The notes beneath the pieces were generated by a model. The model was not told the DNA's origin. It saw only the letters and a program-made list of their open reading frames with translations, and searched no databases. This document shows positions 4,437 to 33,407 of a DNA stretch of 64,000 nucleotides, piece by piece; position 1 is the stretch's first letter, and each line of letters begins with the position of its first letter. Origin of the DNA: Escherichia coli (lineage in GTDB: Bacteria > Pseudomonadota > Gammaproteobacteria > Enterobacterales > Enterobacteriaceae); NCBI RefSeq assembly GCF_030384885.1, contig NZ_CP128613.1. The stretch is one strand, 5' to 3'. The position numbers and the translations under genes are program-made.

Positions 4437-5693
4437 CTAAACGTTATCGTGGGGTGGCTGTTGCTTCGGACGATTGACCATCATCATCGGCTTACCTGCT
4501 AATAACAGCCATGCCGGAAGCATGACGATACAGAGCAGCGGTAGCAATGTGGTATTGGGTACAACGACTGCCGCCATAAAAAGACTTAACCAGCCATCGC
4601 GTGTTACCACCAGCACGATGCCGAGAATAGCGCAGGAAACGGTTATTGCCGCCGGGACAGCGGGAACGTGCTCATGCAGCATCAATCCTAATGCCACGCC
4701 GACAAACACTGCCGGGAATATTCGCCCACCGCGAAAGCCGCTGGCGGCAGCAACCACGAGAGCGGCAAGTTTAATCACCGCCAGCAAAAAGTAATCGCTG
4801 GTGCTGAAAGCCTGATTTGCCACCATCTGCTGCATCTCATCCAGCCCTTTAAATAGCGAAACCGGTCCAGCAATAACCCCCAGAATACCGAGAATAAATC
4901 CGCCAACTCCCAGCATTAGCACCGGATTTTTAATCTGATGCATCATCGCGTGCAACCGTGGCAGACACCATACGGCAACCATCCCTGCTGCGATGGCAAT
5001 CGCCGCCACAATTGCACCGCTGAGAATATCGGTCATCTCCATCTGCCCATAATGCGCAATGGGCAGCGAAAAATGAGGATGGAAAAACAATCCGGTGGTT
5101 AGCGCACCAGCCGCCGCCGCCATTAACGGCGCAAAGAGACGATCCCATAGCGGGACTTCACTACTGCCATTTAAGGTTTGCGAAAATATCAACGCCGCCG
5201 CAACAGGTGTGCCAAACAGCGCGCCGATAGTTCCGGCAGAGGCTAAAATAGTCCATTCCATCCGGTTGACGCGCGGTAACAGACGAGCGCCTATCGCAAC
5301 CGCAAGGGCGATATTGACGGTCATGATCGGATGTTCCGGCCCGAGACTGACGCCGCCAGCAAGACCAAGAATTAATGCTACGATAAGTCCTGGTAGCGCA
5401 GAGGGCGGAACGGGTGCGCCGATCAGCGGTTCACAGGCGGGGTCTGGTCCAGCATGCCCCTGGCTGAAACGGATAACCAACCCCACCGCAATACCTGTTA
5501 GCGTTAATATGGCGATGATCCAGAAAGGTGAATCCTGGGCTATCCCCAGAGTTCCCGGCAGTCGTTGCCAGAGCAAATTCTGTAATACCGAGGCGATTTT
5601 CATCACCACAATCAGAATAAGACTGGACGCAATCCCAATTGCCACGGCGGGGAGTGATAATAACAACATGGTTCTGGCTCGCGGATGGAGCAT
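4437..5693 (-). CDS. yfeO: ClC-like ion channel/transporter family membrane protein YfeO
   Basis: 418-aa polytopic hydrophobic ORF; position between ypeC and glk. Confidence 0.8.
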
Positions 5694-5896
5694 GTTCTAT
5701 TCCTTATGCAGGGTCAGATACTTAGTTTGCCCAGCTTGCTAAAAGGCATCGCTGCAATTGGTGCTGAAACGATAAAGTAATTGTGTGACCCAGATCGATA
5801 TTTACAGGGAGCCTGCCTTTCCGGCGTTGTTGTTATGCCCCCAGGTATTTACAGTGTGAGAAAGAATTATTTTGACTTTAGCGGAGCAGTTGAAGA

Positions 5897-6862
5897 ATGA
5901 CAAAGTATGCATTAGTCGGTGATGTGGGCGGCACCAACGCACGTCTTGCTCTGTGTGATATTGCCAGTGGTGAAATCTCGCAGGCTAAGACCTATTCAGG
6001 GCTTGATTACCCGAGCCTCGAAGCGGTCATTCGCGTTTATCTTGAAGAACATAAGGTCGAGGTGAAAGACGGCTGTATTGCCATCGCTTGCCCCATTACC
6101 GGTGACTGGGTGGCAATGACCAACCATACCTGGGCGTTCTCAATTGCCGAAATGAAAAAGAATCTCGGTTTTAGCCATCTGGAAATTATTAACGATTTTA
6201 CCGCTGTATCGATGGCGATCCCGATGCTGAAAAAAGAGCATCTGATTCAGTTTGGTGGCGCAGAACCAGTCGAAGGTAAGCCTATTGCGGTTTACGGTGC
6301 CGGAACGGGGCTTGGGGTTGCGCATCTGGTTCATGTTGATAAACGCTGGGTAAGCTTGCCAGGCGAAGGCGGTCACGTTGATTTTGCGCCGAATAGTGAA
6401 GAAGAGGCCATTATCCTCGAAATACTGCGTGCAGAAATTGGTCATGTTTCGGCAGAGCGCGTGCTTTCTGGCCCTGGTCTGGTGAATTTGTATCGCGCGA
6501 TTGTGAAAGCCGACAACCGCCTGCCAGAAAATCTCAAGCCAAAAGATATTACCGAACGTGCGCTGGCTGACAGCTGCACCGATTGCCGCCGCGCGTTGTC
6601 GCTGTTTTGCGTCATTATGGGCCGTTTTGGCGGCAATCTGGCGCTCAATCTCGGGACATTTGGCGGCGTGTTTATTGCCGGTGGTATCGTGCCGCGCTTC
6701 CTTGAGTTCTTCAAAGCCTCTGGTTTCCGTGCCGCATTTGAAGATAAAGGGCGCTTTAAAGAATATGTCCATGATATTCCGGTGTATCTCATCGTCCATG
6801 ACAATCCGGGCCTTCTCGGCTCCGGCGCACATTTACGCCAGACCTTAGGCCACATTCTGTAA
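5897..6862 (+). CDS. glk: Glucokinase
   Basis: 321-aa [25 protein letters not shown]-terminal ATP-binding motif of ROK/glucokinase. Confidence 0.93.
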
Positions 6863-6876
6863 ATCCTTCCTGTCAA

Positions 6877-6906
6877 ATCGGGAGATAACTCTCCCGATAA
6901 TCTTTT
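6877..6906 (+). terminator. Intrinsic terminator downstream of glk
   Basis: atcgggagataactctcccgat followed by a T-rich run. Confidence 0.6.
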
Positions 6907-7080
6907 AAATCAAACAGTTAATCCTATTTTTCTTTGTGTCCCCTCACAAGGCCGACCTGCGTCACACTTCCGTACAGCGGGATTAATTCTCCAGTAAATG
7001 CATTATTTGTCTGGTAACGGCGATTTGTTTTGCACGTTCATAATTTCACTCATCAACTATCACTGAACGAGGAATTAACG

Positions 7081-7407
7081 ATGAGTAAGAAACTGATTGC
7101 CTTATGTGCCTGCCCAATGGGCCTGGCTCACACCTTTATGGCCGCTCAGGCGCTGGAAGAAGCGGCGGTAGAAGCCGGTTATGAAGTGAAAATTGAAACC
7201 CAGGGTGCGGACGGCATCCAGAATCGTCTGACCGCGCAGGATATCGCCGAAGCGACCATCATCATCCACTCCGTGGCGGTTACCCCGGAAGATAACGAAC
7301 GTTTCGAATCACGCGACGTTTATGAAATCACTTTGCAGGACGCAATTAAAAACGCTGCGGGCATCATCAAAGAAATCGAAGAGATGATTGCCGCTGAACA
7401 ACAGTAA
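7081..7407 (+). CDS. fryB: PTS fructose-like EIIB component (108 aa)
   Basis: MSKKLIALCACPMGLAHTFMAAQALEEAA with a CxxCP phospho-cysteine loop; start taken at the internal ATG at 7081 rather than the ORF-track start at 7030. Confidence 0.85.
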   Translation: MSKKLIALCACPMGLAHTFMAAQALEEAAVEAGYEVKIETQGADGIQNRLTAQDIAEATIIIHSVAVTPEDNERFESRDVYEITLQDAIKNAAGIIKEIEEMIAAEQQ

Positions 7408-7428
7408 TATTCGACAGGGATAATTGTT

Positions 7429-8676
7429 ATGGCCATTAAAAAACGCAGTGCAACCGTTGTGCCTGGCGCATCCGGTGCGGCAGCGGCAATTAAGAATCCG
7501 CAGGCCTCTAAAACCAGCTTCTGGGGTGAGCTCCCGCAGCATGTGATGTCAGGGATTTCACGCATGGTGCCAACCTTAATTATGGGCGGTGTGATCCTCG
7601 CTTTCAGCCAGTTGATTGCTTATAGCTGGCTTAAAATTCCTGCGGATATCGGCATCATGGATGCTCTTAATAGCGGGAAATTCTCCGGTTTCGACCTCTC
7701 CTTACTGAAGTTTGCCTGGCTGTCACAGTCCTTTGGTGGCGTGCTGTTTGGCTTTGCCATACCGATGTTTGCCGCTTTTGTGGCGAACTCCATCGGCGGC
7801 AAACTGGCATTCCCGGCTGGTTTTATCGGCGGCTTGATGTCTACCCAGCCGACGCAACTGCTGAACTTCGATCCCAGCACGATGCAATGGGCGACCTCTT
7901 CGCCGGTGCCGTCCACCTTCATTGGTGCCCTGATTATTTCTATCGTTGCGGGTTACCTTGTGAAGTGGATGAACCAGAAAATCCAGTTACCGGATTTCCT
8001 GTTAGCGTTCAAAACCACATTTTTGCTACCGATTCTTTCCGCCATTTTTGTCATGCTGGCGATGTACTACGTCATCACCCCATTTGGTGGCTGGATCAAC
8101 GGCGGTATTCGTGCCGTGCTGACTGCCGCAGGTGAGAAGGGCGCGCTAATGTATGCGATGGGTATCGCAGCAGCGACAGCAATCGACCTTGGTGGCCCGA
8201 TCAACAAAGCAGCAGGTTTCGTTGCCTTCAGCTTTACCACTGACCACGTATTACCGGTCACCGCACGTTCTATCGCTATCGTTATTCCACCGATTGGTCT
8301 GGGTCTGGCGACCATTATTGACCGTCGTTTAACCGGCAAACGCCTGTTCAACGCTCAGCTTTATCCGCAGGGTAAAACCGCCATGTTCCTTGCCTTTATG
8401 GGGATCAGTGAGGGTGCGATTCCGTTTGCGCTGGAAAGCCCCATCACCGCTATTCCGTCCTATATGGTTGGCGCGATTGTCGGCTCAACCGCCGCTGTCT
8501 GGCTGGGTGCAGTTCAATGGTTCCCGGAATCTGCTATCTGGGCATGGCCGCTGGTCACTAACCTCGGTGTCTATATGGCGGGGATCGCGCTGGGAGCAAT
8601 CATTACTGCGCTGATGGTGGTGTTCCTGCGTCTGATGATGTTCCGTAAAGGCAAATTGTTAATCGATAGCCTGTAA
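7429..8676 (+). CDS. fryC: PTS fructose-like EIIC permease component
   Basis: 415-aa polytopic membrane ORF directly downstream of fryB. Confidence 0.85.
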
Positions 8677-8690
8677 GAAGGACAATCCAG

Positions 8691-9776
8691 ATGACATTAC
8701 TCGCTTCGCTGCGCGACTGGCTTAAGGCGCAACAACTGGATGCAGTGCTTCTCTCCTCACGGCAGAACAAACAGCCGCATCTGGGGATCTCCACCGGATC
8801 AGGTTATGTGCTGATTAGTCGTGAAAGTGCGCACATTCTGGTGGATTCGCGCTATTACGCGGATGTAGAAGCCCGCACCCAGGGCTACCAGCTGCATTTG
8901 CTTGATGCGACGCACACGCTTACCACTATCGTCAGGCAAATCATTGCCGATGAGCAGTTGCAAACGCTCGGTTTTGAAGGCCAGCAGGTAAGTTGGGAAA
9001 CCGCGCACCGCTGGCAGTCTGAACTCAATGCGAAACTGGTAAGCGCCACGCCGGATGTGCTGCGGCAAATCAAAACGCCAGAGGAGGTGGAGAAAATCCG
9101 CCTCGCCTGTGGGATTGCCGATCGCGGTGCAGAGCATATTCGCCGCTTTATTCAGGCGGGGATGAGCGAATGCGAGATAGCCGCTGAACTGGAGTGGTTT
9201 ATGCGCCAGCAGGGCGCAGAAAAAGCCTCTTTCGATACCATTGTCGCCAGTGGCTGGCGTGGGGCGCTGCCGCACGGCAAAGCCAGCGACAAGATTGTTG
9301 CAGCGGGCGAGTTTGTCACTCTTGATTTTGGTGCGCTGTATCAGGGCTACTGCTCTGATATGACGCGTACCTTGCTGGTGAATGGCGAAGGGGTGAGCGC
9401 CGAATCTCACCCGCTGTTTGATGTGTATAACATTGTCCTGCAGGCACAGCTCGCGGCAATCTCCGCGATTCGCCCCGGCGTGCGCTGCCAACAGGTTGAC
9501 GACGCCGCGCGCCGGATCATTACAGAAGCCGGTTATGGTGACTATTTTGGTCACAACACTGGTCATGCCATCGGCATTGAAGTCCATGAAGAGCCGCGTT
9601 TTTCACCGCAGGACACCACGACGCTACAGCCAGGGATGTTACTGACCGTGGAGCCGGGGATTTATTTGCCAGGGCGAGGTGGCGTGCGCATCGAAGATGT
9701 CGTGCTGGTTACCCCGCAAGGCGCGGAAGTGCTCTACGCCATGCCAAAAACAGTGTTGCTCACGGGAGAGGCATAA
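8691..9776 (+). CDS. ypdF: Xaa-Pro aminopeptidase (M24 family)
   Basis: 361-aa ORF with M24 metal-ligand motifs ([14 protein letters not shown]). Stop overlaps the next start. Confidence 0.85.
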
Positions 9777-10813
9777 TGGATTTATCGCTATTAAAAGCGT
9801 TGAGCGAGGCAGATGCGATCGCCTCCTCGGAACAGGAAGTGCGGCAGATCCTGCTGGATGAAGCGGATCGACTGCAAAAAGAAGTGCGATTTGATGGCCT
9901 GGGATCGGTGCTGATCCGCCTCAATGAATCGACAGGTCCGAAGGTGATGATCTGTGCGCATATGGACGAAGTGGGATTTATGGTGCGTAGCATCTCCCGC
10001 GAAGGGGCGATTGATGTCCTGCCAGTTGGCAATGTGCGCATGGCTGCCCGCCAGCTTCAGCCAGTACGGATCACTACTCGTGAAGAGTGCAAAATTCCCG
10101 GTTTGCTCGATGGCGAACGGCAGGGGAATGACGTCAGCGCCATGCGCGTGGACATTGGTGCGCGCTCGTATGACGAAGTGATGCAGGCAGGTATTCGTCC
10201 GGGCGATCGTGTCACGTTTGATACCACTTTTCAGGTTCTCCCTCACCAGCGAGTGATGGGTAAAGCCTTTGATGACCGCCTCGGTTGCTACCTGCTGGTG
10301 ACGTTACTACGTGAGCTGCACAACGCCGAGCTGCCTGCGGAAGTGTGGCTGGTGGCAAGTTCCAGCGAAGAGGTGGGATTACGCGGCGGGCAAACCGCCA
10401 CCCGCGCGGTGTCGCCGGACATCGCCATTGTGCTTGATACCGCCTGCTGGGCGAAAAACTTTGATTATGGCGCGGCTAACCATCGCCAGATTGGTAACGG
10501 CCCGATGCTGGTGTTAAGCGACAAGTCGCTGATTGCGCCGCCAAAACTTACCGCGTGGATCGAAACCGTCGCGGCAGAAATTGGCGTGCCGTTGCAGGCC
10601 GATATGTTCAGCAACGGCGGAACGGACGGCGGGGCGGTGCATTTAACCGGCACTGGCGTACCCACAGTGGTGATGGGGCCAGCAACCCGCCACGGACATT
10701 GCGCCGCATCGATTGCCGACTGCCGCGACATTTTGCAGATGCAGCAGCTTTTATCTGCCCTTATTCAACGTCTTACCCGTGAGACGGTTGTTCAACTGAC
10801 GGATTTCAGATGA
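9776..10813 (+). CDS. ypdE: M42-family aminopeptidase
   Basis: 345-aa ORF; start codon overlaps the ypdF stop (ATAATGG), suggesting translational coupling. Confidence 0.8.
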
Positions 10814-10837
10814 TCTCCTGATTAACCCGGAGCGGTT

Positions 10838-13333
10838 ATGTTAACGATTCAATTTCTCTGTCCTTTGCCAAACGGCCTGCATGCTCGTCCGGCGTGGGAA
10901 CTTAAAGAGCAGTGCAGCCAGTGGCAAAGCGAAATCATCTTCATTAACCATCGCCAGAACGTAAAGGCCGATGCCAAAAGTTCGCTGGCGCTGATTGGCA
11001 CCGGCACCTTATTTAATGACAGTTGCAGCCTGAACATTAGCGGCAGCGATGAAGAGCAGGCGCGGCGCGTGCTGGAAGAGTACATCCAGGTGCGCTTTAT
11101 CGACAGCGACAGCGTCCAGCCGACGCAGGCAGAACTGACGGCACATCCACTGCCGCGTTCATTAAGCCGCCTGAACCCTGATTTACTGTACGGCAATGTG
11201 CTGGCAAGCGGCGTCGGCGTGGGTACGTTGACCCTGCTACAGAGCAACAGCCTCGACAGTTATCGGGCAATCCCGGCTAGTGCGCAAGACTCCACCTGGC
11301 TGGAACACAGCCTGGCAACGCTTGCCGAGCAACTGAACCAGCAGTTGCGCGAGCGTGACGGCGAAAGCAAAACTATCCTCAGCGCCCATTTATCGCTGAT
11401 TCAGGATGATGAATTTGCAGGGAATATCCGTCGCCTGATGGCAGAACAGCATCAGGGGCTGGGGGCTGCGATCATCAGCAATATGGAGCAGGTTTGCGCC
11501 AAGCTTTCTGCCTCTGCCAGCGATTATCTGCGCGAGCGGGTCAGCGACATTCGTGATATCAGCGAACAATTGCTGCATATCACCTGGCCGGAACTGAAGC
11601 CGCGTAATAATCTGGTGCTCGAAAAACCGACCATTCTGGTGGCTGAAGATTTAACCCCTAGCCAGTTTTTGAGCCTCAATTTAAAAAATCTTGCGGGCAT
11701 GATTCTGGAGAAAACCGGGCGCACCTCGCATACTCTGATTCTGGCCCGCGCCTCGGCGATCCCCGTACTGAGCGGCCTGCCGCTGGATGCCATTGCTCGC
11801 TATGCCGGGCAACCGGCGGTGCTTGACGCCCAGTGCGGCGTGCTGGCTATTAATCCTGATGACGCGGTGGGTGGTTATTATCAGGTTGCGCAGACGCTGG
11901 CGGATAAACGCCAGAAACAACAGGCGCAGGCCGCCGCGCAGCTGGCCTATTCCCGTGATAACAAGCGCATTGATATCGCGGCGAATATTGGCACCGCTCT
12001 GGAAGCGCCTGGCGCGTTTGCCAACGGCGCGGAAGGTGTCGGGCTGTTTCGTACCGAAATGCTCTATATGGAGCGCGACAGTGCGCCGGACGAACAGGAA
12101 CAGTTTGAAGCATACCAACAGGTGCTACTGGCGGCGGGCGACAAGCCGATTATTTTCCGCACGATGGACATCGGCGGCGATAAAAGCATTCCTTACCTCA
12201 ACATTCCCCAGGAAGAGAACCCGTTCCTCGGCTATCGCGCGGTACGAATTTACCCGGAATTTGCTGGCCTGTTCCGCACTCAACTGCGGGCTATTTTGCG
12301 TGCCGCCAGTTTCGGCAACGCCCAGCTGATGATCCCGATGGTTCACAGCCTCGATCAGATCTTATGGGTGAAGGGCGAGATCCAAAAAGCGATCGTTGAG
12401 CTTAAACGCGATGGCCTGCGTCATGCAGAGTCGATTACGCTGGGTATCATGGTGGAAGTACCGTCGGTGTGCTACATCATCGACCACTTCTGCGATGAGG
12501 TCGATTTCTTCAGTATCGGTTCTAACGATATGACCCAGTATCTGTATGCGGTCGATCGTAATAACCCGCGCGTATCGCCGCTGTATAACCCGATTACGCC
12601 ATCGTTCCTGCGCATGTTGCAGCAGATTGTTACCACTGCGCATCAGCGCGGCAAATGGGTAGGTATTTGCGGTGAACTGGGCGGTGAAAGTCGTTATCTG
12701 CCGCTACTGCTTGGACTGGGCCTGGATGAGCTGAGTATGAGTAGCCCGCGTATTCCGGCGGTGAAAAGCCAGCTTCGTCAACTGGATAGCGAGGCGTGTC
12801 GGGAACTGGCGCGTCAGGCATGTGAATGCCGCAGTGCGCAGGAAATTGAAGCGTTACTCACCGCCTTTACGCCGGAAGAAGACGTTCGCCCACTGCTGGC
12901 GCTGGAGAATATCTTTGTTGATCAGGCCTTTAGCAATAAAGAGCAGGCGATCCAGTTCCTGTGCGGCAACCTTGGCGTTAACGGGCGTACTGAACATCCG
13001 TTTGAGCTGGAAGAAGATGTCTGGCAGCGGGAAGAGATTGTCACTACTGGCGTTGGTTTTGGCGTGGCGATCCCGCACACCAAATCTCAGTGGATCCGTC
13101 ATTCCAGTATCAGCATTGCCCGGCTGGTGAAACCGGTTGACTGGCAGTCAGAAATGGGCGAAGTCGAACTGGTGATCATGCTGACGCTGGGCGCTAACGA
13201 AGGGATGAACCATGTGAAAGTCTTCTCGCAGCTGGCGCGCAAACTGGTGAATAAAAACTTCCGCCAGTCGTTGTTTGCCGCGCAAGATGCACAAAGCATC
13301 CTGACGCTGCTGGAAACGGAATTAACCTTCTGA
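10838..13333 (+). CDS. fryA: Multiphosphoryl-transfer PTS protein (HPr-EI-EIIA fusion)
   Basis: 831-aa ORF; translation contains an HPr-like N-terminus (LPNGLHARPA) and an Enzyme I-like core. Confidence 0.85.
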   Translation: MLTIQFLCPLPNGLHARPAWELKEQCSQWQSEIIFINHRQNVKADAKSSLALIGTGTLFNDSCSLNISGSDEEQARRVLEEYIQVRFIDSDSVQPTQAELTAHPLPRSLSRLNPDLLYGNVLASGVGVGTLTLLQSNSLDSYRAIPASAQDSTWLEHSLATLAEQLNQQLRERDGESKTILSAHLSLIQDDEFAGNIRRLMAEQHQGLGAAIISNMEQVCAKLSASASDYLRERVSDIRDISEQLLHITWPELKPRNNLVLEKPTILVAEDLTPSQFLSLNLKNLAGMILEKTGRTSHTLILARASAIPVLSGLPLDAIARYAGQPAVLDAQCGVLAINPDDAVGGYYQVAQTLADKRQKQQAQAAAQLAYSRDNKRIDIAANIGTALEAPGAFANGAEGVGLFRTEMLYMERDSAPDEQEQFEAYQQVLLAAGDKPIIFRTMDIGGDKSIPYLNIPQEENPFLGYRAVRIYPEFAGLFRTQLRAILRAASFGNAQLMIPMVHSLDQILWVKGEIQKAIVELKRDGLRHAESITLGIMVEVPSVCYIIDHFCDEVDFFSIGSNDMTQYLYAVDRNNPRVSPLYNPITPSFLRMLQQIVTTAHQRGKWVGICGELGGESRYLPLLLGLGLDELSMSSPRIPAVKSQLRQLDSEACRELARQACECRSAQEIEALLTAFTPEEDVRPLLALENIFVDQAFSNKEQAIQFLCGNLGVNGRTEHPFELEEDVWQREEIVTTGVGFGVAIPHTKSQWIRHSSISIARLVKPVDWQSEMGEVELVIMLTLGANEGMNHVKVFSQLARKLVNKNFRQSLFAAQDAQSILTLLETELTF

Positions 13334-13335
13334 CG

Positions 13336-14193
13336 TTAGCCCTGAAAACGGGCGCTGTACTCTCCCGGCGTCAGGCCAAACTGACGCCGGAAGACGCGAC
13401 AAAAATAGTCGCTGTCCGGAAAGCCGCAACGCTGCGCCACTTCATGAATCGACAGATGATATTTCTGCAAAATCATCCTCGCCTTCGCCATTCGCACCCA
13501 ACGCACATATTCGATAAAACGCATTGTTCCATGCTGCGCAAACAGTTTTGACAGATGATTGGGCGTGATATTAAAAAACTGCGCCACGTTCTCACGGGTG
13601 AGCGGCTGGGCATAATTATCCTGAACCCAGTTACAAATGCTGTGATAGAGAAAATCGCCGCGCGGCTGCGAATTACCCGGCGGCATATTCACCACGTTGC
13701 GGCAAAGATGCAGCAAACTTAACACCAGCGGCTGAATGATATTCTGCTCCAGCGGCGAACGGCTAAGATGGGTGAGGGCAGTAAGCATTGCTTCACCTTC
13801 GCCGCGTTGCAGGCTGGGAAGTTGGATCTGGCGAACCGGATGCAACAACGACGTGGTGCGGCTATCGTAATACGATAAACCAAGCCAGGTCGGCGCGAAC
13901 ACCAGACTTAACAGCATTACCGGTTTGTTGTTGACCGGTAAATTAGCCGCGCGCGCTGGAATAAACAGCATTTCTCCTTCCACCATACGTTGTTGCTTTG
14001 CTTCCAGCTGATTGCCGTATTCGCCGCGTAGCACGATATCCAGACGGGGAAAATCAATACATAAACTGCCCACTGGCAATGAGGCGGGCTGGCTGGCAAA
14101 CCAGACGCGCCCAAGGAGTTGCGGGTTAAGCACCAGGCCGCTGAACAGATCGGCGAAAAATTGTTGATCGGCGGGCAAGCCTGTTGCTTTCAT
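13336..14193 (-). CDS. ypdC: AraC-family transcriptional regulator
   Basis: 285-aa ORF; C-terminal AraC helix-turn-helix signature (LTPGEYSARFQG-type tail). Confidence 0.8.
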   Translation of the reverse strand: MKATGLPADQQFFADLFSGLVLNPQLLGRVWFASQPASLPVGSLCIDFPRLDIVLRGEYGNQLEAKQQRMVEGEMLFIPARAANLPVNNKPVMLLSLVFAPTWLGLSYYDSRTTSLLHPVRQIQLPSLQRGEGEAMLTALTHLSRSPLEQNIIQPLVLSLLHLCRNVVNMPPGNSQPRGDFLYHSICNWVQDNYAQPLTRENVAQFFNITPNHLSKLFAQHGTMRFIEYVRWVRMAKARMILQKYHLSIHEVAQRCGFPDSDYFCRVFRRQFGLTPGEYSARFQG

Positions 14194-14204
14194 GAAAATC
14201 CCGA

Positions 14205-14957
14205 TTACAGATGCATTAACTGCCTGAATTCTTTTACTTTGCTACGGCTGACCGGCACTTCAAAATCCAGATCTTTCAGTCGCAGAATGTAGGTGTTATT
14301 AAACCACGGTTCGATTTCGCGGATTTTGTTCAGATTGACACAAAATGAGCGATGGCAGCGGAAAAAATGCGACGGCGGCAGCTTGCTGCAAAACTCGGTA
14401 ATGTTCATCGGCATTACGTAGGATTCACGCCGCGTATAGACAAAGGTCATTTTCTCGTGCGCTTCGGCGTAATAGATATCGTTAATTGGCGTGACGATGA
14501 TTCGCTCATCTTTCACCAGATTAATGGTGTCATTCTCACGCGTTACCGTCGCGGCAGGCGTACTGCTGGTCTGCTGTTGTTGCCAGGCTGCTTCCAGTTT
14601 TTGCAGCATCCCGGTAATGCGTGATTCCTGATACGGTTTGAGAATGTAGTCAAACGCTTCCAGTTCAAACGCTTCTACCGCATGTTCTTTCCACGCGGTG
14701 ATGAACACAATAAACGGTTTATGGGCGAACTGGCTGATGTTTTGCGCCAGCAACACACCATCCAGCGACGGAATATTGATATCCAGAAAAATGGCGTCGA
14801 CGCGGTTATGCTGCAAAAACTTCAACACGTCCAGACCGTCGTCAAAGGTGCCGACAATCTCCATCTGGCTGTGCTCTTTAATTAGCCAGCTCAGTTCCTG
14901 TTGTGCCAGGAATTCGTCTTCAACAATGATGACTTTCACAATATCACTCCGGCTCAA
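14205..14957 (-). CDS. ypdB: LytTR-family two-component response regulator
   Basis: N-terminal receiver domain ([15 protein letters not shown]...[10 protein letters not shown]) and C-terminal LytTR domain. Start overlaps the ypdA stop; the true start may be the GTG six codons downstream. Confidence 0.85.
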
Positions 14958-16651
14958 AGCAATAACGTAGCCTGTGAGGCGACAGGGGTGCGTTGGTTAG
15001 GAATGTAAAACGCAATTTCCGTTCCTGGTTCCAGGCGGCGGATATGCAGCCCCTCGCCATACAATAACTTCACGCGATGATGGACATTCAGCAGGCCAAT
15101 TTTATTGCCCGGCATTTCGTTCGCTTCGACCCGCTCAATGACTTTTGGATCGATGCCGTGCCCGGTATCTCGCACCGCAATGCGTACCCGATTACCGCAC
15201 TCTGCAACGCTGATGGTGACAACGCCTTTACCTTTGCAAGGCTGAATACCGTGGACAATGGCGTTCTCCACTAAAGGCTGGATCAGCAGGCTGGGAATGC
15301 AGCAATTCACCTCTTCATCAATATCATAGATAACCGTCAGCTTGTCGCCAAAGCGGGCCTGCTCAATGGCAATATAGTCTTTAATTTGATACAGCTCTTT
15401 TTTGATATCGATTTGCTCATCGTCTTTTAATTCAATGTTATAGCGCAGATAACGCGACAGATTAAAGATCAGCTGGCGAGCGGTATCCGGATTCAGACGG
15501 ATCGACGATGAGATAGCATTCAGAGCATTAAACAGGAAATGGGGATTAATTTTGCTTTGCAGAGCGCGAAGCTCTGCCTTATTTGCCATTTCACGTAGTT
15601 GCTCGGCGCGTGAAACCTCCAGTTGGGTGGAGATGATTTGCGACAGACCGACCGCCATTTCCTGTAATGACGAGGTGATCTGATGTGCGTGGCAGTAGTA
15701 AATTTTCAGCGTCCCGGTCACGACCCCTTTCTCCCAAAGCGGGATCACCAGCATCGAGTGGATTTCCGGTGTACGGTGGGCTTCATCATTGTTTTTAATA
15801 ATGATTTTTCCGTAATTCATTGCCTGACGCGTTGTTGGGCTGATGAAATCATCGCCATTCTGATAGTTGTGTTCACCTACGCCAACATAGGCCAGCACAT
15901 GATCGGTGTTGGTAATCGCTACCGCATCGGCGTGAATATCATCGCGGATAATTTCACAAACTTTGCGTAATGACTCGCTATTGACATGGCGAAACAGCGG
16001 CAGCGTTTTGTTGGCGATATCCAGCGCCAGCTTGGCCTGCCGCGCGGCGCTGGCCTCTTTTTCGCCCTCAACGCTTTGTACCAGCAACACAATAAAGCCG
16101 ATACAAACGCTGCCGAGGATCATCGGAATCCCGATTTTGGAGACGATATCAATCCCCAGTGCAGTGGTGGGTGCCCAGACAATCACCAGGATCATCGTCA
16201 ACGTTTCACATAACATGCCACCGAGAATACCGACGCGCCAGCGCTGTGCTTTGGGGATTTTCAGGTTGATCCAGCCTGATATGCAACCCGCGAGAATACT
16301 GGTGATAAAGCACGGAATTGCCGTCACGCCGCCGATGTCGATTAAATAACGGTGAATACCCGCAATCACACCGGTAATGATGCCTACCCACGGGCCAAAT
16401 AGAATTCCGCCTGACATCACCGCGATAATACGCACATTAACCAGCGAGCCTTCTACGGGCACGCCGGACCAGGTGCTGAACAGGGCGAACAGCGAGAAAA
16501 TGGCGGTAACGGCGAGCAGCTCTTTTGGGGAGTGCGCCGACTTGTGCAACAGTTCGCGAAACAGGCGGATACGGATGAGAAAGAACAGGCAGATAAGCAT
16601 TAACGCTGCCCGATCGAAGACCGCCAGCAGCATGTTGAATATTTCGTGCAC
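14954..16651 (-). CDS. ypdA: Two-component sensor histidine kinase (LytS/5TM-GAF type)
   Basis: 565-aa ORF with N-terminal multi-TM region and C-terminal histidine kinase/ATPase motifs ([16 protein letters not shown]). Confidence 0.85.
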
Positions 16652-17027
16652 GGGTGACTCTGAATAAGGATTAAACCTCTATGATAGGTAACCTGAAGGC
16701 CGATGACCAGCAGGCCGTTTTTGAGGAAAGACCACAATTTTAAAAGGGGATTGAAAGTTAAATGGTGTATTAGCAATGCATCTCTTAATAATGCATATCT
16801 GTTTGGTAAATTTATTGAAATTATAATGTTAATAAATTGAGTGGTAATTTTCTTGTTAGCGTAGATAAATTTCCTGTTTTTAAAGCGGAGTTCCTCATTT
16901 AAGGCTATTAACAAAAATGTTCTAAAACGCTGGACAGACAGAAATTAATCAGGCTATTTTCAAAACAGCCACCATCGTGGCAGCGTCGCTCGGACGGTCC
17001 GGGCGCTCACGTTAATCTGAGGAAATT

Positions 17028-18266
17028 ATGGCTGACACTCGCCCTGAACGTCGCTTTACGCGTATTGATCGTCTCCCACCCTACGTTTTTAACATTACCG
17101 CTGAACTGAAAATGGCTGCGCGTCGGCGCGGCGAAGATATTATCGATTTCAGTATGGGTAACCCGGACGGTGCGACCCCGCCGCATATCGTCGAAAAATT
17201 ATGTACGGTGGCCCAGCGACCGGACACGCATGGTTATTCCACCTCGCGTGGTATTCCGCGGTTACGTCGCGCCATTTCCCGCTGGTATCAGGATCGCTAC
17301 GACGTCGAGATCGACCCGGAATCAGAGGCTATCGTCACCATTGGCTCGAAAGAGGGGCTGGCGCATCTGATGCTGGCGACGCTGGATCACGGTGACACTG
17401 TACTGGTGCCTAATCCAAGCTACCCGATTCATATTTACGGCGCGGTGATTGCCGGGGCGCAGGTACGCTCAGTGCCGCTGGTGGACGGTGTCGATTTCTT
17501 CAACGAACTGGAACGCGCCATTCGCGAAAGTTATCCGAAACCGAAGATGATGATCCTCGGCTTCCCGTCGAACCCAACCGCGCAATGCGTGGAACTGGAA
17601 TTCTTTGAGAAGGTTGTGGCGCTGGCGAAACGCTACGATGTGCTGGTGGTCCATGACCTGGCCTATGCCGATATCGTCTACGATGGCTGGAAAGCGCCGT
17701 CAATTATGCAGGTGCCGGGTGCACGAGACGTGGCGGTCGAGTTCTTTACGCTGTCGAAAAGCTACAACATGGCGGGCTGGCGTATCGGCTTTATGGTCGG
17801 TAACAAAACGCTGGTCAGTGCGTTGGCACGTATTAAAAGCTATCACGATTACGGTACTTTTACGCCGTTGCAGGTGGCGGCGATTGCGGCACTGGAGGGC
17901 GATCAACAGTGCGTGCGCGATATTGCCGAACAGTACAAACGCCGCCGCGATGTACTGGTTAAAGGGCTGCATGAAGCAGGCTGGATGGTCGAAATGCCGA
18001 AGGCTTCGATGTATGTCTGGGCGAAAATCCCGGAACCATATGCGGCCATGGGCTCACTGGAATTTGCCAAGAAACTGCTTAACGAAGCGAAGGTCTGTGT
18101 CTCTCCAGGGATTGGCTTTGGCGACTACGGCGACACCCATGTCCGCTTTGCGCTGATTGAAAACCGCGACCGTATACGCCAGGCGATTCGTGGAATTAAA
18201 GCGATGTTCCGTGCCGACGGTTTACTACCCGCCAGCAGCAAACATATTCACGAAAACGCGGAATAA
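17028..18266 (+). CDS. alaC: PLP-dependent aminotransferase (glutamate-pyruvate aminotransferase AlaC)
   Basis: 412-aa ORF with class I aminotransferase motifs including the lysine region [12 protein letters not shown]. Confidence 0.85.
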
Positions 18267-27355: not shown

Positions 27356-30300
27356 GTCATTTTGTTGACAGAAAACCGCAATCTCCTGGTCTAACTCTGC
27401 AATGTGTTCTTTAACAGAGTTCAGCAACTTAAGAATTTCAGGCTTGCTGTCATCTGAAACGGGCGTTATTTCTAACTGGTGGCTAAGATTAATCAACTTT
27501 TGCAAATTCAGGATGTTAGCCGCACCGTGGATGCGATGAATACACTGATGGAAAGTTCTGTTATCGCCAGCTTCTAACGCATGAAACGCAGCGGGTAGAT
27601 CTTTATGCGTTTCATGCTGGAAAGTCATGAGAATCTCCTGCATCAGTTGTAGATCGTTCGCCGTATTATTTTTCAGGGCCTCGATATCAAGGTGGCGATA
27701 CTGAGGTGCAATATGCGCAACCTGGTGTAACTGACTTAAATGTGTTTTCAGTACATCCAGGGTTAACGGTTTGAACAAACATAAGTTCATGCCGCAATTT
27801 AACCCTTTGTCGCGTTCATTAGCCTGTGCGTTGGCCGTAAGCCCCCAGACGGGTAAAGAATAATGTTGCTCACGGAGTTTGCGGGTCAACTCAAAACCAT
27901 CCATATTCGGCATATTAACGTCAGTAATAAACAGATCATAATGCTGCATACTGACTTTGTGTAGCGCCTGTACACCATCAGAGGCTTCATCAACATCATA
28001 CCCTAATAGGTTTAGCTGGCGTTTGAGTAAAAGTCTGTTTGTCGGATGATCATCCGCGATTAATATGTTTAATTTTTCAGGCAGTGTGACGGGTTGTTCT
28101 GGTTTTGCCTCGACAGTCGCCACTTGCTGGGTAATTTCTACCGGGATTGTGATTGTAAAAGTCGTTCCTATGCCGGGATGACTTTCTAATGACAAATCGC
28201 CCTGCATGTTTTTGATTAATTCTTTGCAGATCATGAGGCCTAAACCAGAACCTGTTTGCTGACGACCTGCTGTTGTTTGGCTATAGCGTTTAAACAGTTG
28301 TTGTTGTTCTTCCTGCGATAATCCGCTTCCGGTGTCCATAATCGTCATTTTGATAACAGCGTGGTAGTCATCAATATGAACCAGGGAAGTCGTAATTTTT
28401 ACTGCCCCCTCGGTGGTAAATTTAAGGGCATTACTCAGTAAATTAGACAGCACCTGCTTAAATGCTTGAGGGTCGATTTTAACCAGGTAGCGTTCAGGAA
28501 GCGTACTGCTGCAATTTAATGCGATGGATTTGCTTGCAGCAATCGCACCGAAAGAATGACAAGTGTTCTGGACTAAAGCAGGGATATCGACCCATTGTGG
28601 TTGAAGTTGATAGTTACCCGATTCAATTTTGTCGACATCAAGGATTTCACCAATTAAGCCGAGGAGCGACTGTCCGGTGGCGTAAGCAAGTGAAATCGCC
28701 TCCACACGTTGCTCCTTGCTAAGACCTGAACCCGACAGAAGTTCCAGGAAGCCCATAATGGAGCTTATTGGTGTTCTTATTTCGTGACTCATTGTTGCCA
28801 GGAACTGGCTTTTTGCGACAGTTGCATTGATAGCTTTATTTCTTTCTACTTCGAGTGCATGAATTAAATCACGCGTCTCGGTAATATCTTGCCAACCACA
28901 AATATATACTGCATTGTCACTTGCAGGTAAATTGCATAATGTATGCCAATGATTAATGCATCTTTTTTCAATACCATTATTAATTTCAAAAACTTGGCTA
29001 TATATTGTTCTGTTTTCTTTTGTTTCTGCTGTGACTTCATGCACATTAGAAAAAACATCTTTAAAGGGGGAGTCACTGTTTTCTAATGGTAACATTGCAT
29101 TTTTGTAGTAATCAGCAGTGAAATAATGTTCAAATGCACTATTGTGACTAATGACATTACCTTGCCAGTTTACAACATAAGTTGGATTCGGTAAGGAATC
29201 CGAGAGTGCTTTCCGGAATGATATTTGGTTTTCTAAATCACCCTGAATTACCTTACGACGACGAACTGAGCGTAACAGGTAGAATCCCCATAAAAGGCTA
29301 CTGCCAACTAATAAAACGGATAAAGTCGTAACAATGTAAAATTGCTCACTATAGAGGTCCCATGTGTCAATGGTCACATTGGGCATTTTGATCCATTTTT
29401 CCGTCAGGCGCAGAACTTCGCTTGGGGGAATTGCATTCAATGCTTTATTAATAATATCCTTAAGTTCTGGTTCTCCGCGAGGAAAAGCGAACGAAAGCGA
29501 TGCATTCTCAACGCCGGGAATAAGAAAATGATAAAGCTCATTAGGATAGTAATGGTCGATCATGTAACGCGAATTTAGCTGTGTCGCGACCAGGGCATCA
29601 AGTTCACCTTCCTTAACCTTGTGAAATGCAGCGCTAGCATTATCGACTTGTATCCACTCAACCTCCGGATACATCTCTTTCAATTGCGAATGAAGCTCAT
29701 AATAATATGGAATGGCAACTTTCATTCCTTTTTTTAAAGTTTGTTCACTATCAGGCGCTTTTTGCATGACGAAAACGTAAGGCGTTGTTATGAATGCTTC
29801 AGCAAATAAAACATTATTTTCTCGATCTTCACTATAAATAGCACCAGGTAAGATATCCCATCCATCGGGATTAAGCTGTGTTCCGGCATGGATATTGTGT
29901 GAAACGGTGATCGGAGAAAATTTTAAACCTGTTTGCAATGTAATAATATTAAGAATATCCCCCATAACGCCCCGAACCGAGCCATTTTCATCAGTCATAG
30001 AATAGGGGGGCGAGTAAGGATTTTCCAGCACCCTTAATTCGGGATGCTGCTTAATCCACAGTTTTTCATGTTCAGTGAGTTCTAATGGTTTGTTCAGAAA
30101 GGCCAGGTTCCCTGTATCAAGCCAATTTTGTGATACTTCATAGCGAACTTCATTTGTTAAAGCATCGACAAATCGATTGAGTACTTCATTAAGAACAACT
30201 GATTCTTTTCTGGTTAAGAAGAAATTATATTGGCGCGGTGTACTATAATAATTTACTACATTTAAGGAGTGAGTAAAATATCGGGAAATCATACTACTGG

Positions 30301-30946
30301 TAATGATGTTACTACCCATAAAGTAATCATTATGTCCGGTAGAAACGGATGCCAATGCCTGATATAAATTTGTAAAAGAGATAATTGTTGCTTTGGGAAA
30401 TGATTGGTGAATTACCTCGTCGGGGGGGTAATTTGCTACTCGCGCAATATTCACTGGTTTCGGCGAGGTTAGCGGTCGCATTGAATCGTGGAGGGTGGTG
30501 ACCAGCGCCGGAAAGGTAATTATCAATGGTTTGGTTGCAGCAATGTCCTCATTAACAGGCGGCGAAGCAACTAAATGTGATAACACGATATCGACTTCAC
30601 CTTCTTCCAGCGCGTCCATTGCTTTTTGATGATTAGGGTATTCCCGGAGTGTTAATTTGATATTTAATGCTTTTTTTAAAAGATTTAAATAATCAGCATT
30701 AATACCACGAACCCGTTGCTGCGAATCGGTATGCAATAATGTCGCTGTTTTTGACTTGTGTACTGCAATCACAAGATTTTTTTTGCTTGCCAGCCAACGC
30801 AACTCCTTGTTGCTCAGACGCAGTGGATCAAGTGTGACACGATTGTTACTACTGATGCCACGATATTCAATGTAATCTTCGTCTGCGAAACTTATAGTCG
30901 ACCAAAGACAACAAGAGAGAAGAAAAAAATAGGTTAAAAACTTCAT
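27353..30946 (-). CDS. evgS: Hybrid sensor histidine kinase EvgS (periplasmic solute-binding domains, HK, receiver, HPt)
   Basis: Translation from MKFLTYFFLLSCCLWSTISFA (1197 aa) with histidine kinase, receiver and HPt regions; the ORF track extends 10 codons further upstream. Confidence 0.9.
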   Translation of the reverse strand: MKFLTYFFLLSCCLWSTISFADEDYIEYRGISSNNRVTLDPLRLSNKELRWLASKKNLVIAVHKSKTATLLHTDSQQRVRGINADYLNLLKKALNIKLTLREYPNHQKAMDALEEGEVDIVLSHLVASPPVNEDIAATKPLIITFPALVTTLHDSMRPLTSPKPVNIARVANYPPDEVIHQSFPKATIISFTNLYQALASVSTGHNDYFMGSNIITSSMISRYFTHSLNVVNYYSTPRQYNFFLTRKESVVLNEVLNRFVDALTNEVRYEVSQNWLDTGNLAFLNKPLELTEHEKLWIKQHPELRVLENPYSPPYSMTDENGSVRGVMGDILNIITLQTGLKFSPITVSHNIHAGTQLNPDGWDILPGAIYSEDRENNVLFAEAFITTPYVFVMQKAPDSEQTLKKGMKVAIPYYYELHSQLKEMYPEVEWIQVDNASAAFHKVKEGELDALVATQLNSRYMIDHYYPNELYHFLIPGVENASLSFAFPRGEPELKDIINKALNAIPPSEVLRLTEKWIKMPNVTIDTWDLYSEQFYIVTTLSVLLVGSSLLWGFYLLRSVRRRKVIQGDLENQISFRKALSDSLPNPTYVVNWQGNVISHNSAFEHYFTADYYKNAMLPLENSDSPFKDVFSNVHEVTAETKENRTIYSQVFEINNGIEKRCINHWHTLCNLPASDNAVYICGWQDITETRDLIHALEVERNKAINATVAKSQFLATMSHEIRTPISSIMGFLELLSGSGLSKEQRVEAISLAYATGQSLLGLIGEILDVDKIESGNYQLQPQWVDIPALVQNTCHSFGAIAASKSIALNCSSTLPERYLVKIDPQAFKQVLSNLLSNALKFTTEGAVKITTSLVHIDDYHAVIKMTIMDTGSGLSQEEQQQLFKRYSQTTAGRQQTGSGLGLMICKELIKNMQGDLSLESHPGIGTTFTITIPVEITQQVATVEAKPEQPVTLPEKLNILIADDHPTNRLLLKRQLNLLGYDVDEASDGVQALHKVSMQHYDLFITDVNMPNMDGFELTRKLREQHYSLPVWGLTANAQANERDKGLNCGMNLCLFKPLTLDVLKTHLSQLHQVAHIAPQYRHLDIEALKNNTANDLQLMQEILMTFQHETHKDLPAAFHALEAGDNRTFHQCIHRIHGAANILNLQKLINLSHQLEITPVSDDSKPEILKLLNSVKEHIAELDQEIAVFCQQND

Positions 30947-30950
30947 GTGG

Positions 30951-31565
30951 TTAGCCGATTTTGTTACGTTGCGCAAATGTGTAAAGATCCATCAGTGATT
31001 TACATTCTAATTTTTCCATCAGGCGACTTTTATAAGTGCTGACAGTTTTGTTGCTGATGAACATTTTCTCGGCAATGTCATTGTTATCTTTGCCATCGAG
31101 GATATAGCGCATGACACTAATTTCTTGTTTCGATAAGGAGTCGAGTTTTTGCTGGTCGGACGTTAAACTTCCAACAAATCGATTGAGAGAGAAGGGGAAA
31201 TAGCAGTAGCCATTTTTTGCTGCTTCAATAGCCGCAATGATATTGTTCATGCCCTCTTTTTTACTGACGAATCCATTAGCGCCAGCATCAGCACAATGTT
31301 TCCCGTAAAAATGGTCATTTTTAGCGGAGACGATAATAATAATTCCGCTATATTGGCGCTTCCTCAGTGTTTCTAACACCTGGATACCGTTAACTCCGGG
31401 GATATCGACGTCAATGATGACGATATCAGGCTTAAGTGTTTCCACCCGTTGAACGGCGCTTCCGCCTTCAGTCAACTCGGCTAAGATTTCAATATCGTTT
31501 TTGATCAATAAATTACGAATTGCTGCGATAGCAAGAGGATGGTCATCAATAATTATTGCATTCAT
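30951..31565 (-). CDS. evgA: Response regulator EvgA (NarL/FixJ family)
   Basis: 204-aa ORF MNAIIIDDHPLAIAAIRNLL with C-terminal LuxR-type HTH. Confidence 0.93.
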   Translation of the reverse strand: MNAIIIDDHPLAIAAIRNLLIKNDIEILAELTEGGSAVQRVETLKPDIVIIDVDIPGVNGIQVLETLRKRQYSGIIIIVSAKNDHFYGKHCADAGANGFVSKKEGMNNIIAAIEAAKNGYCYFPFSLNRFVGSLTSDQQKLDSLSKQEISVMRYILDGKDNNDIAEKMFISNKTVSTYKSRLMEKLECKSLMDLYTFAQRNKIG

Positions 31566-31789
31566 AGATTATTCCCTTTGCAATGAAGCATCTCCCTTCT
31601 CCCTGTAGTAATACAGACATAAGGCATCATCTCATTTTCTCAATAAAAATAAGAAAATTTGCGCTTCCTTTAAGATAATTCGGTAAGTATACCATATAAA
31701 TAGTCAGCATAAATAAAATGTCAACAATAAATTCAGGGATAATACCGCTAACTTATAGTTTCAAATGATTACTATAAGGCTTCTCATTA

Positions 31790-31807
31790 ATCCTACAGGC
31801 GTAAGAA
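31790..31807. promoter_or_regulatory. EvgA box in the evgA-emrK divergent promoter region
   Basis: atcctacaggcgtaagaa; same inverted-repeat motif as upstream of yfdX and frc. Confidence 0.65.
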
Positions 31808-32066
31808 TTGTATTGCAAAAGTCACGGTTCAGTCCTCTGTTGTATCTTCTGCAACTCCTTTAAATTAGGCCTCCAACGTTCCTGGGATAATGTGTAACAC
31901 ATGCACTGTGTTTGATATGAAGAATGAATACTCTTTTCATTCAATTCATAAATTTCATCTATGCGAAATGAGAGATAATAGTGGAACAGATTAATTCAAA
32001 TAAAAAACATTCTGACAGAAGAAAATATTTTTCTTTATTAGCGGTAGTTTTATTTATTGCGTTTTC

Positions 32067-32071
32067 AGGAG
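32067..32071. repeat. Target-site duplication (AGGAG), copy 1
   Basis: aggag immediately abuts the IS2 terminus beginning at 32072. Confidence 0.85.
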
Positions 32072-32082
32072 TGGATTTGCCC

Positions 32083-32988
32083 CTATATTTCCAGACACCT
32101 GTTATCACTTAACCCATTACTGGCCTGCTGCCGTAGATATTCCCGTGGCGAGCGATAACCCAGTGCACTATGCGGATGCCATTCGTTATAATGCTCGAAC
32201 GCCTCTGCAAGGTTCTTTGCTGCCGTTAACCCGTCTGGTTTAGGCATGACACTGATGTAGTCACGCTTTATCGTTTTCACGAAGCTCTCTGCTATGCCGT
32301 TACTCTCCGGACTCCGCACCGCCGTGTTCTTCGGTTCAAGCCCCAACATCCGGGCAAACTGCCGTGTTTCATTAGCCCGGTAGCATGAACCATTATCCGT
32401 CAGCCACTCTACTGGAGACGCCGGAAGCTCGTTGCCGAAGCGGCGTTCAACCGCTCCCAGCATGACGTCCTGTACTGTTTCACTGTCGAAGCCGCCCGTA
32501 GTGACCGCCCAGTACAGTGCCTCACGGTCACAGCAGTCCAGCGCGAACGTGACTCGCAGTTTTTCTCCGTTATCACAGCGGAACTCGAACCCGTCAGAGC
32601 ACCATCGTTGATTGCTTTCTTTCACGGCCACTTTGCCAGTATGTGCCCGCTTCGATGGCGGTACAGCGGTTTTTCGCTCAAGCAACAGCGCATTCTGGCG
32701 CATGATCCGGTAAACACGTTTGGCATTGATCGCAGGCATACCATCAAGTTCGGCCTGTCTGCGAAGCAGCGCCCATACCCGACGATAACCATACGTGGGC
32801 AGCTCTCCGATAACATGGTGTATACGGAGAAGTACATCCATATCATCTGAGTGACGGCTGCGGCGACCATCTTTCCAGTCATCGGTTCGTCTGAGAATGA
32901 CGTGCAACTGCGCACGCGACACCCGGAGACAACGGCTGACTAAGCTTACTCCCCATCCCCGGGCAATAAGGGCGCGTGCGCTATCCAC
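32083..32988 (-). CDS. insD: IS2 transposase OrfB (InsD), DDE integrase-like catalytic domain
   Basis: 301-aa ORF; normally expressed as an OrfAB fusion via -1 frameshifting in IS3-family elements. Confidence 0.88.
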
Positions 32989-33311: not shown

Positions 33312-33402
33312 CTGCTCTCCAATGACTAGTCTAAAAACTAGTATTAAGACTATCACTTATTTAAGTGATATTGGTTGTCTGGAGATTCAGGGGGCCAGTC
33401 TA

Positions 33403-33407
33403 AGGAG
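33403..33407. repeat. Target-site duplication (AGGAG), copy 2
   Basis: aggag immediately follows the IS2 IRL terminus at 33402. Confidence 0.85.

Follow-up and report, generated by a model that had tools for sequence, protein, structure and literature searches.

Why does Escherichia coli keep two aminopeptidase genes inside a set of genes for a fructose-like phosphotransferase system (PTS)? The question is raised by positions 7081-16651 of the 64,000-nucleotide stretch of E. coli DNA analysed here (contig NZ_CP128613.1; hereafter the window), where fryB, fryC, ypdF, ypdE and fryA are followed by the regulatory genes ypdC, ypdB and ypdA. A first-pass annotation, made from the sequence alone, had singled out this pairing as unusual and its substrate as not established, and on the second point the literature agrees, since the substrate of FryABC was still called unknown in a 2017 paper (PMC5364489). 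We propose, at a probability that we put near 0.6, that in this known core locus an autonomous fructose-family PTS takes up a sugar to which an aminoacyl or peptidyl group is attached, that the imported compound is then trimmed by YpdF and YpdE, and that the AraC-family protein YpdC is the regulator.

The stretch is a core locus of E. coli, fryBC-ypdFE-fryA together with ypdCBA, already annotated and correctly re-identified: the gene identities first assigned agree with the list of open reading frames (ORFs), the RefSeq annotation and our own translation, and every domain is backed by Pfam. The 9.6-kb stretch is 100% identical to that of the RefSeq strain E. coli 2013C-4282, with the same annotations, and has a match in 5424 of 5426 complete E. 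coli genomes (at least 80% query coverage in 5413), so that chance is no issue. Its K-12 counterpart is b2380-b2387, with fryB-fryC-ypdF-ypdE-fryA as b2387-b2383 and ypdC-ypdB-ypdA as b2382-b2380; the K-12 names for ypdA and ypdB are now pyrS and pyrR. Genes, order, lengths and junctions are alike, and this is the same locus in another strain, with allelic differences only (synonymous divergence, dS, 0.09-0.30 per gene; proteins 96-100% identical, with YpdF at 96% and YpdA and YpdB at about 100%).

Given the match to the K-12 map, the solved structures and biochemical characterisation of both peptidases and the earlier study of the two-component system, the sighting is already known, and with the locus annotated in every E. 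coli genome it adds nothing by itself. The question behind it is real but modest: since the 1990s no substrate has been known for several orphan PTS systems of E. coli, fry, frv and sgc among them. Our literature searches on fry/ypdEF, and on C-S lyases together with PTS and aminopeptidase genes, turned up no paper in which a substrate is assigned or the cassette described. Comparison with other genomes makes the question easier to test, in that it supplies a candidate regulator, YpdC, with a candidate operator, sets ypdC apart from the pyruvate sensor beside it, points to a class of substrate with sugar and amino-acid parts, and names MalY as a possible partner from elsewhere in the genome. 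Three points were not found in the searchable literature, namely a cassette with a C-S lyase shared by two phyla, the assignment of ypdC to fry in place of the pyruvate system, and the likeness of a cassette lyase to MalY; we regard them as modest, testable leads on an old and minor question.

The PTS-peptidase linkage in other bacteria

YpdF was searched against 1.84 billion representative proteins and the gene neighbourhoods of its relatives were read; one genome per species was scanned, and 80 loci were classified by tblastn. The nearest relatives outside the enterobacteria are 39-46% identical and fall into two gene contexts. The commoner, the housekeeping arrangement aroQ-M24-efp, occurs in Bacilli and related groups. 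The clostridial context consists of genes for a PRD regulator, PTS components IIA, IIB and IIC, an M24 peptidase, an M42 peptidase and a PatB-family C-S lyase, with one variant that has no M42 gene; it is carried by Caproiciproducens faecalis, Enterocloster lavalensis, an uncultured Clostridium and several metagenome contigs. The order IIB-IIC-M24-M42 is kept in Clostridia and in the ten other enterobacterial genomes examined, and this core is orthologous, the E. coli and clostridial proteins being 76% (FryB), 63% (FryC), 47% (YpdE) and 45% (YpdF) identical. In a neighbour-joining tree of 85 M24 sequences, built by this distance method only, enterobacterial YpdF groups with every clostridial M24 protein encoded beside PTS genes, in a single clade (bootstrap 100/100) with no efp-linked member. 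Conserved order in two phyla, a separate M24 clade and the nearness of YpdE to the cassette M42 enzymes together argue that PTS and peptidase genes are linked through inheritance as a cassette, not by accident. The clostridial version differs from that of E. coli in having a separate IIA, with general enzyme I and HPr, in place of FryA, a PRD/Mga-type regulator in place of the AraC-type one, and the C-S lyase, which the E. coli locus does not encode.

The pairing of PTS and peptidase genes is thus less unusual than the first-pass annotation held, both because the M24-M42-PTS cassette recurs across phyla and because all three E. coli M42 paralogues (ypdE, frvX and sgcX) lie inside PTS operons, the other two in the orders frvA-frvB-frvX-frvR and sgcX-sgcB-sgcC-sgcQ-sgcA-sgcE-sgcR. 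Among the three M42 enzymes of E. coli, YpdE has been characterised and is dodecameric (2012 paper, PMC3511314), and it is closer to the clostridial cassette M42 enzyme than to its own paralogues FrvX (36% identity) and SgcX (33%). Like fry, the frvABXR and sgcXBCQAER operons encode orphan PTS systems with substrates that are also unknown, and their embedded M42 enzymes keep all metal ligands. Unlike fry, they have no M24 gene and no fused HPr-enzyme I-IIA protein, sgc belongs to the galactitol family, and their regulators, FrvR and SgcR, are not of the AraC type.

The five cassette genes of the window lie on the + strand with the short or overlapping co-directional junctions first described, the gaps being 21 nt (fryB/fryC), 14 nt (fryC/ypdF), -1 nt (ypdF/ypdE) and 24 nt (ypdE/fryA). 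As had been stated, the stop codon of ypdF and the start codon of ypdE overlap, by 1 nt, in GGCATAATGGAT, which suggests translational coupling. Matches resembling terminators or promoters occur across the region no more often than they do after shuffling of the sequence, and the conserved promoter footprint lies 5' of fryB only. Because the junctions are tight, because no internal terminator rises above chance, and because the same order recurs in the ten further enterobacterial genomes and, fryA apart, in Clostridia, an operon-like architecture fryBC-ypdFE-fryA is supported; an array table also gives 'fryBC ypdF ypdE fryA' as a single unit (PMC2731931). The description of ypdABC as divergent was wrong: ypdCBA is convergent with fryA, their stop codons being 2 nt apart (TGAcgTTA), so that convergent transcripts would overlap, and the neighbour divergent from ypdA is alaC.

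All genes of the locus are under purifying selection. The eight ORFs are uninterrupted and of K-12 length, in line with the original view that all are intact, and the ratio of nonsynonymous to synonymous divergence (dN/dS) against K-12 and against Citrobacter is 0.006-0.13, which means that no gene is decaying. The most strongly conserved cassette genes are fryB and fryC, with 94-97% amino-acid identity to Citrobacter and dN/dS of 0.006-0.03, and the least constrained genes are ypdF (0.13) and ypdC (0.06-0.085); YpdF, the product of the fastest-evolving gene, is 73% identical to its counterpart in Citrobacter werkmanii, against 89% for YpdE.

One might suppose instead that YpdF and YpdE serve general housekeeping as aminopeptidases, sharing no more than a transcript with a cryptic PTS and having no substrate in common with it, a reading that we consider unlikely. 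It would account for the hydrolysis of ordinary peptides in vitro that Zheng et al. are said to have found for both enzymes in 2005 (a study cited in PMC3511314), and it fits the aroQ-M24-efp context of the closest non-PTS relatives of YpdF, the rapid evolution of ypdF and the decades that have passed without a substrate being found; it is difficult to reconcile, however, with a gene order conserved across two phyla and with the fully supported separation of the PTS-linked M24 clade, and three independent M42-PTS pairings in one genome, the start-stop overlap and purifying selection on every gene also speak against it.

Proposed import, trimming and release of the sugar

All phospho-acceptor motifs are intact in FryA and FryB. 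FryB has the phospho-Cys motif CACPMGLAHT (Cys11), which fits the A-C-P-x-G-x-A-H-T pattern of IIB(Fru), and matches Pfam PTS_IIB and TIGR00829 (92 bits vs a cut-off of 76.85), and FryC matches Pfam PTS_EIIC (53.1 bits, cut-off 30.7). In FryA, Pfam places HPr (6-84), enzyme I (119-650) and EIIA_2 (687-826) in that order; the motifs GLHARP (His15), GRTSHT (His298), ICGELGG and AIPHT (His747) are present, and the protein scores above the cut-offs of TIGR01417 and TIGR00848. The RefSeq annotation (PGAP) of strain 2013C-4282 gives this gene the symbol 'ptsP' (positions 7758-10253 of the retrieved 2013C-4282 stretch) where K-12 has fryA; the label is misleading, as the protein is the HPr-enzyme I-IIA fusion FryA and not the enzyme I of the nitrogen PTS. 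In one assembly of Salmonella enterica subsp. diarizonae, fryC is not called and the tblastn match begins at FryC residue 25 (locus 7717-9001), which may reflect a 5' defect or an alternative start.

The peptidases, too, have their active-site residues. YpdF matches Pfam Creatinase_N and Peptidase_M24 over the full length and NF007310 with 812 bits vs 393; its metal ligands D212, D223, H292, E321 and E335 are invariant, and it is matched by the solved structure PDB 5CNX (E = 6e-232). For YpdE, the Pfam Peptidase_M42 match spans 1-292 of 292, NF007421 scores 679 bits vs 412, residues H62, D64, D166, E198, E199, D221 and H308 are invariant, and the matching solved structure is PDB 1YLO (E = 6.5e-224). 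Shortened YpdF variants of 304 amino acids in Shigella dysenteriae (more than 100 contigs) and of 320 amino acids in Escherichia albertii suggest lineage-specific truncation.

We propose that the five + strand genes form one transcription unit, read from an activator-dependent promoter near 7039-7051 with a CRP-like site and a 29-nt box. Phosphate would pass from phosphoenolpyruvate to the enzyme I domain of FryA (His298), to HPr (His15), to IIA (His747) and on to Cys11 of FryB, and FryC would import and phosphorylate the substrate, with the general PTS proteins dispensable. The substrate is probably a glyco-amino acid or glycopeptide, that is, a sugar with an aminoacyl or peptidyl group that has a free N-terminus, which the presumably cytoplasmic metallo-aminopeptidases YpdF (M24B) and YpdE (M42) would trim. 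In relatives, a pyridoxal phosphate-dependent C-S lyase of PatB/MalY type would complete the cassette, removing the last residue by beta-elimination to yield pyruvate, ammonium and the sugar part; E. coli would have lost this lyase from the fry locus.

A TIGR04350 PatB-family gene lies 3' of the peptidase genes in the clostridial cassettes and 3' of fryA in a Sodalis-like locus, where the order is AraC, fryB, fryC, M24, M42, fryA, PatB-family lyase; the two cassette lyases that were scanned both score above the TIGR04350 cut-off. No PatB-family lyase is present in the cassette in the Escherichia, Citrobacter, Salmonella, Enterobacter, Buttiauxella and Hafnia genomes examined, and the gap of 2 nt between fryA and ypdC in E. 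coli holds no lyase remnant. E. coli does have malY elsewhere (K-12 malX-malY, 5356-8130 of the retrieved stretch), and MalY shares 65% identity with the Sodalis-like cassette lyase (12717-13892 of its locus), 40% with the Enterocloster type and 27% with the Caproiciproducens type. The malX-malY pair resembles these cassettes in joining a PTS permease gene to a PatB/MalY-family C-S lyase gene, and is itself a second such pairing of unexplained purpose; it differs in that MalX belongs to the glucose family and no peptidases are present, and a functional link to fry is a hypothesis only. The neighbouring alaC was considered as the missing lyase gene and rejected, since its product is an alanine transaminase (NF006033, 883 bits) that is about 23% identical to the cassette lyases and shares only their fold.

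Other genes adjoining the cassette vary from locus to locus. In Citrobacter sp. FP75, a 1.1-kb insert between fryA and ypdC contains a 351-amino-acid ORF (14079-15134 of its locus) and has no PatB match. In Caproiciproducens, and in this one species only, a type I mannose-6-phosphate isomerase gene directly follows the cassette lyase gene (13355-14317 of its locus), and on another clostridial contig a PTS operon of N-acetylmuramic acid (MurNAc) type, with MupG and a SIS-domain protein, adjoins the cassette (9556-13008 of its locus); as clues to the sugar, these neighbours were set aside as too inconsistent across loci.

The lyases allow a bolder version of our proposal, which we offer tentatively and regard as unlikely. 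In this version, fry-ypdEF would be the E. coli form of a two-phylum cassette of a PTS, two peptidases and a C-S lyase, serving sugars linked to cysteine, serine or short peptides (S-/O-glycosyl amino acids, glycopeptides or sugar-cysteine adducts); it would be switched on through YpdC and CRP at the 29-nt box, and the unlinked MalY would supply the lyase step. If true, this role for MalY would tie together two long-standing questions in E. coli: what the orphan Fry PTS is for, and why malX and malY are paired.

Sugar-specific operons with comparable features are known. The chitobiose operon chbBCARFG has the same architecture as that proposed for fry, being a PTS operon with separate IIB and IIC genes, embedded genes for cytoplasmic hydrolases, and control by the AraC-family regulator ChbR and by CRP; its hydrolases, a phospho-glucosidase and a deacetylase, are not peptidases, however, and it differs further in its PTS, of the lactose/cellobiose family, and in the position of the regulator gene inside the operon. 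In the frl system of E. coli and the fra and gfr systems of Salmonella, a sugar-amino-acid conjugate is imported and split in the cytoplasm; deglycases and kinases are encoded there, with a mannose-family PTS in the case of gfr; none of these components occurs in the fry locus, and peptidases are not part of those systems.

Several observations weigh against import and trimming of a sugar conjugate by the Fry and Ypd proteins. YpdE and YpdF reportedly act on ordinary peptides in vitro, so that their activity can be explained without a glyco-substrate. FryC scores 157.0 against TIGR01427, marginally under the cut-off of 157.55. The cassette includes no glycosidase or deglycase, so that the sugar-releasing step is unclear where the lyase is absent, and the lyases of different cassettes are mutually only 27-40% identical and may have been recruited independently. 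With regard to regulation, ypdC starts 11 nt after ypdB on the same strand in E. coli and so may be expressed together with ypdAB, and YpdC gave no peaks in chromatin immunoprecipitation with exonuclease treatment (ChIP-exo) under the conditions tested (PMC8464067).

The incomplete state of the E. coli locus also invites the view that Fry serves chiefly as a phosphorelay for regulation, in the manner of PtsP-Npr-PtsN, or persists as a silent remnant, with FryC transporting nothing relevant and the pathway broken since the lyase was lost. Consistent with this are the missing PatB/MalY-type gene that the Sodalis-like and clostridial cassettes have, a fryB promoter without a usable -35 element, the fact that no inducing condition is known, and the increased fitness of an in-frame fryA deletion in prolonged culture in lysogeny broth (PMC5364489). 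Yet fryB and fryC are the most conserved genes of the cassette, all phospho-sites are intact, the locus is kept at high coverage in nearly every complete E. coli genome, and malY is present elsewhere in the genome; we judge a relay or remnant to be quite improbable.

YpdC, YpdAB and the fryB promoter

The first-pass annotation had grouped ypdA, ypdB and ypdC as one module. Its domain assignments hold, as Pfam identifies a sensor kinase, a LytTR regulator and an AraC-type regulator: YpdA and YpdB have the domains of a LytS/LytTR two-component system, and YpdC has the C-terminal double helix-turn-helix of the AraC family (HTH_18 73.9 bits, HTH_AraC 49.6 bits). The three genes do not, however, form one evolutionary module. 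In all enterobacterial genomes examined, an orthologue of ypdC (44-82% identity) adjoins the fry cassette, whether or not ypdAB is found there as well, and in six cases, namely Hafnia, Superficieibacter, Buttiauxella, Enterobacter, S. enterica subsp. diarizonae and the Sodalis-like locus, no ypdAB lies beside the cassette. In Buttiauxella and Enterobacter the cassette adjoins rna in place of glk; in subspecies diarizonae it occupies the E. coli position between glk and alaC, with ypdC followed directly by alaC; and in the Sodalis-like locus the AraC gene lies upstream of the cassette and is co-directional with it. As ypdC stays beside the cassette where ypdAB does not adjoin, the 'ypdABC module' is composite, and YpdC, rather than YpdAB, is likely to be the dedicated fry regulator.

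YpdAB responds to pyruvate (PMC5552118), and yhjX has been reported as the only direct target of YpdB (PMC4847170). The YpdB motif GGCATTTCAT, of which the operator is a direct repeat, has no match in 6863-7080, the fry promoter region, and a YpdB operator near fryB was rejected on this ground; one-mismatch matches in the whole window number 6, against 8.2 expected by chance. We propose that YpdAB is a separate pyruvate-sensing system that acts on yhjX, and that its adjacency to fry is specific to some lineages. Control of fry by YpdAB, with pyruvate sensing, PTS-peptidase genes and YpdC as one functional unit, is suggested by the adjacency of the genes, by the short ypdB-ypdC spacing and, from general enzymology, by the pyruvate that a C-S lyase reaction would release, but it is very improbable given the single reported target, the motif counts and the six loci that keep ypdC without ypdAB beside the cassette.

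The dedicated role that we assign to YpdC finds a possible site of action upstream of fryB, where we aligned 10 sequences with three different upstream neighbours (glk, rna and an araC-like gene). The predicted CRP-like site GCCGA-N6-TCACA has a right half, TCACA, and a left-half GA that are invariant in all 10, and it is near-consensus in Hafnia (TGCGA-N6-TCACA) and in the Sodalis-like locus (TGTGG-N6-TCACA). Downstream of it, a 29-nt box conserved in 10/10 sequences contains two half-sites, CAGTAA and TGGTAA, at a distance of 20 nt and overlaps the -35 position. A weight matrix made from the box found no other strong match in any locus scanned, and we infer that the box is a candidate operator of the AraC-family YpdC. 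A further weight-matrix match in the window, at 54873, was discarded, as it lies within a long ORF and its 17 bits are estimated to be about chance level. The predicted -10 hexamer, in which CATA.T is invariant in 10/10 sequences, would place the transcription start near 7051, and a GAGGAA ribosome-binding site precedes the ATG at 7081. A generic sigma-70 scan found no promoter upstream of fryB, because the -35 is weak; the -10 emerged from the alignments alone. Judged from these aligned elements, the layout appears to be that of an activator-dependent promoter of the AraC + CRP type.

Coordinates and minor features

Coordinates of the genes and sequence features are collected in the table. 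The hairpin after glk, found by motif scan, may separate glk from the fry promoter region. The stem-loop past fryA has no U-tract, and the 111-nt region around it has a z-score of -3.8; our guess is that it may act as a 3' stabiliser or pause element.

Table. Genes and sequence features of the fry-ypd locus and its flanks (positions of the window).
Feature	Position	Strand	Description
Hairpin	6877-6898	+	terminator-like, ATCGGGAGATAACTCTCCCGAT, then T-rich tail; after glk
CRP-like site	6951-6966	+	predicted, GCCGA-N6-TCACA; centre about -92 from predicted start
29-nt box	6990-7018	+	TCCAGTAAATGCATTATTTGTCTGGTAAC; conserved in 10/10 sequences; overlaps -35 position; candidate operator
-10 hexamer	7039-7044	+	predicted, CATAAT, fryB promoter
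fryB	7081-7407	+	PTS enzyme IIB, fructose family, 108 amino acids (aa); ORF list, RefSeq annotation of identical strain, own translation
fryC	7429-8676	+	PTS enzyme IIC permease, 415 aa; ORF list, RefSeq, translation
ypdF	8691-9776	+	M24B (pita-bread) aminopeptidase, 361 aa; Pfam Creatinase_N, Peptidase_M24
ypdE	9776-10813	+	M42 aminopeptidase, 345 aa; Pfam Peptidase_M42
fryA	10838-13333	+	multiphosphoryl transfer protein, HPr + enzyme I + IIA(Fru), 831 aa; Pfam HPr-EI-EIIA_2
ypdC	13336-14193	-	AraC-family regulator, 285 aa; Pfam HTH_18
Stem-loop	13365-13390	+	10-bp stem CCGGCGTCAGGCCAAACTGACGCCGG; 32 nt past fryA stop, inside 3' end of convergent ypdC
ypdB (pyrR)	14205-14939	-	response regulator, Response_reg + LytTR, 244 aa, GTG start
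ypdA (pyrS)	14954-16651	-	LytS-type histidine kinase: 5TMR-LYT, GAF, His_kinase, HATPase; 565 aa, GTG start
alaC	17028-18266		divergent from ypdA

An Rfam search of 6500-17500 returned no RNA family, and neither the GC content nor the third-position GC content (GC3) of the locus indicates that E. coli acquired it recently by horizontal transfer. Of 5425 matching records, just 2 are at least 99% identical to the stretch and most are 95-99% identical, so either the source strain belongs to a divergent lineage or the locus is unusually polymorphic. Elsewhere in the window, positions 30000-39500 form a mosaic variable segment that is unrelated to the fry locus and too rich in insertion sequences (IS) to inform on the lineage of the strain; it contains IS3 and IS2 transposase matches between dsdA, emrKY and evgS, of a kind found in many copies per genome and also on plasmids.

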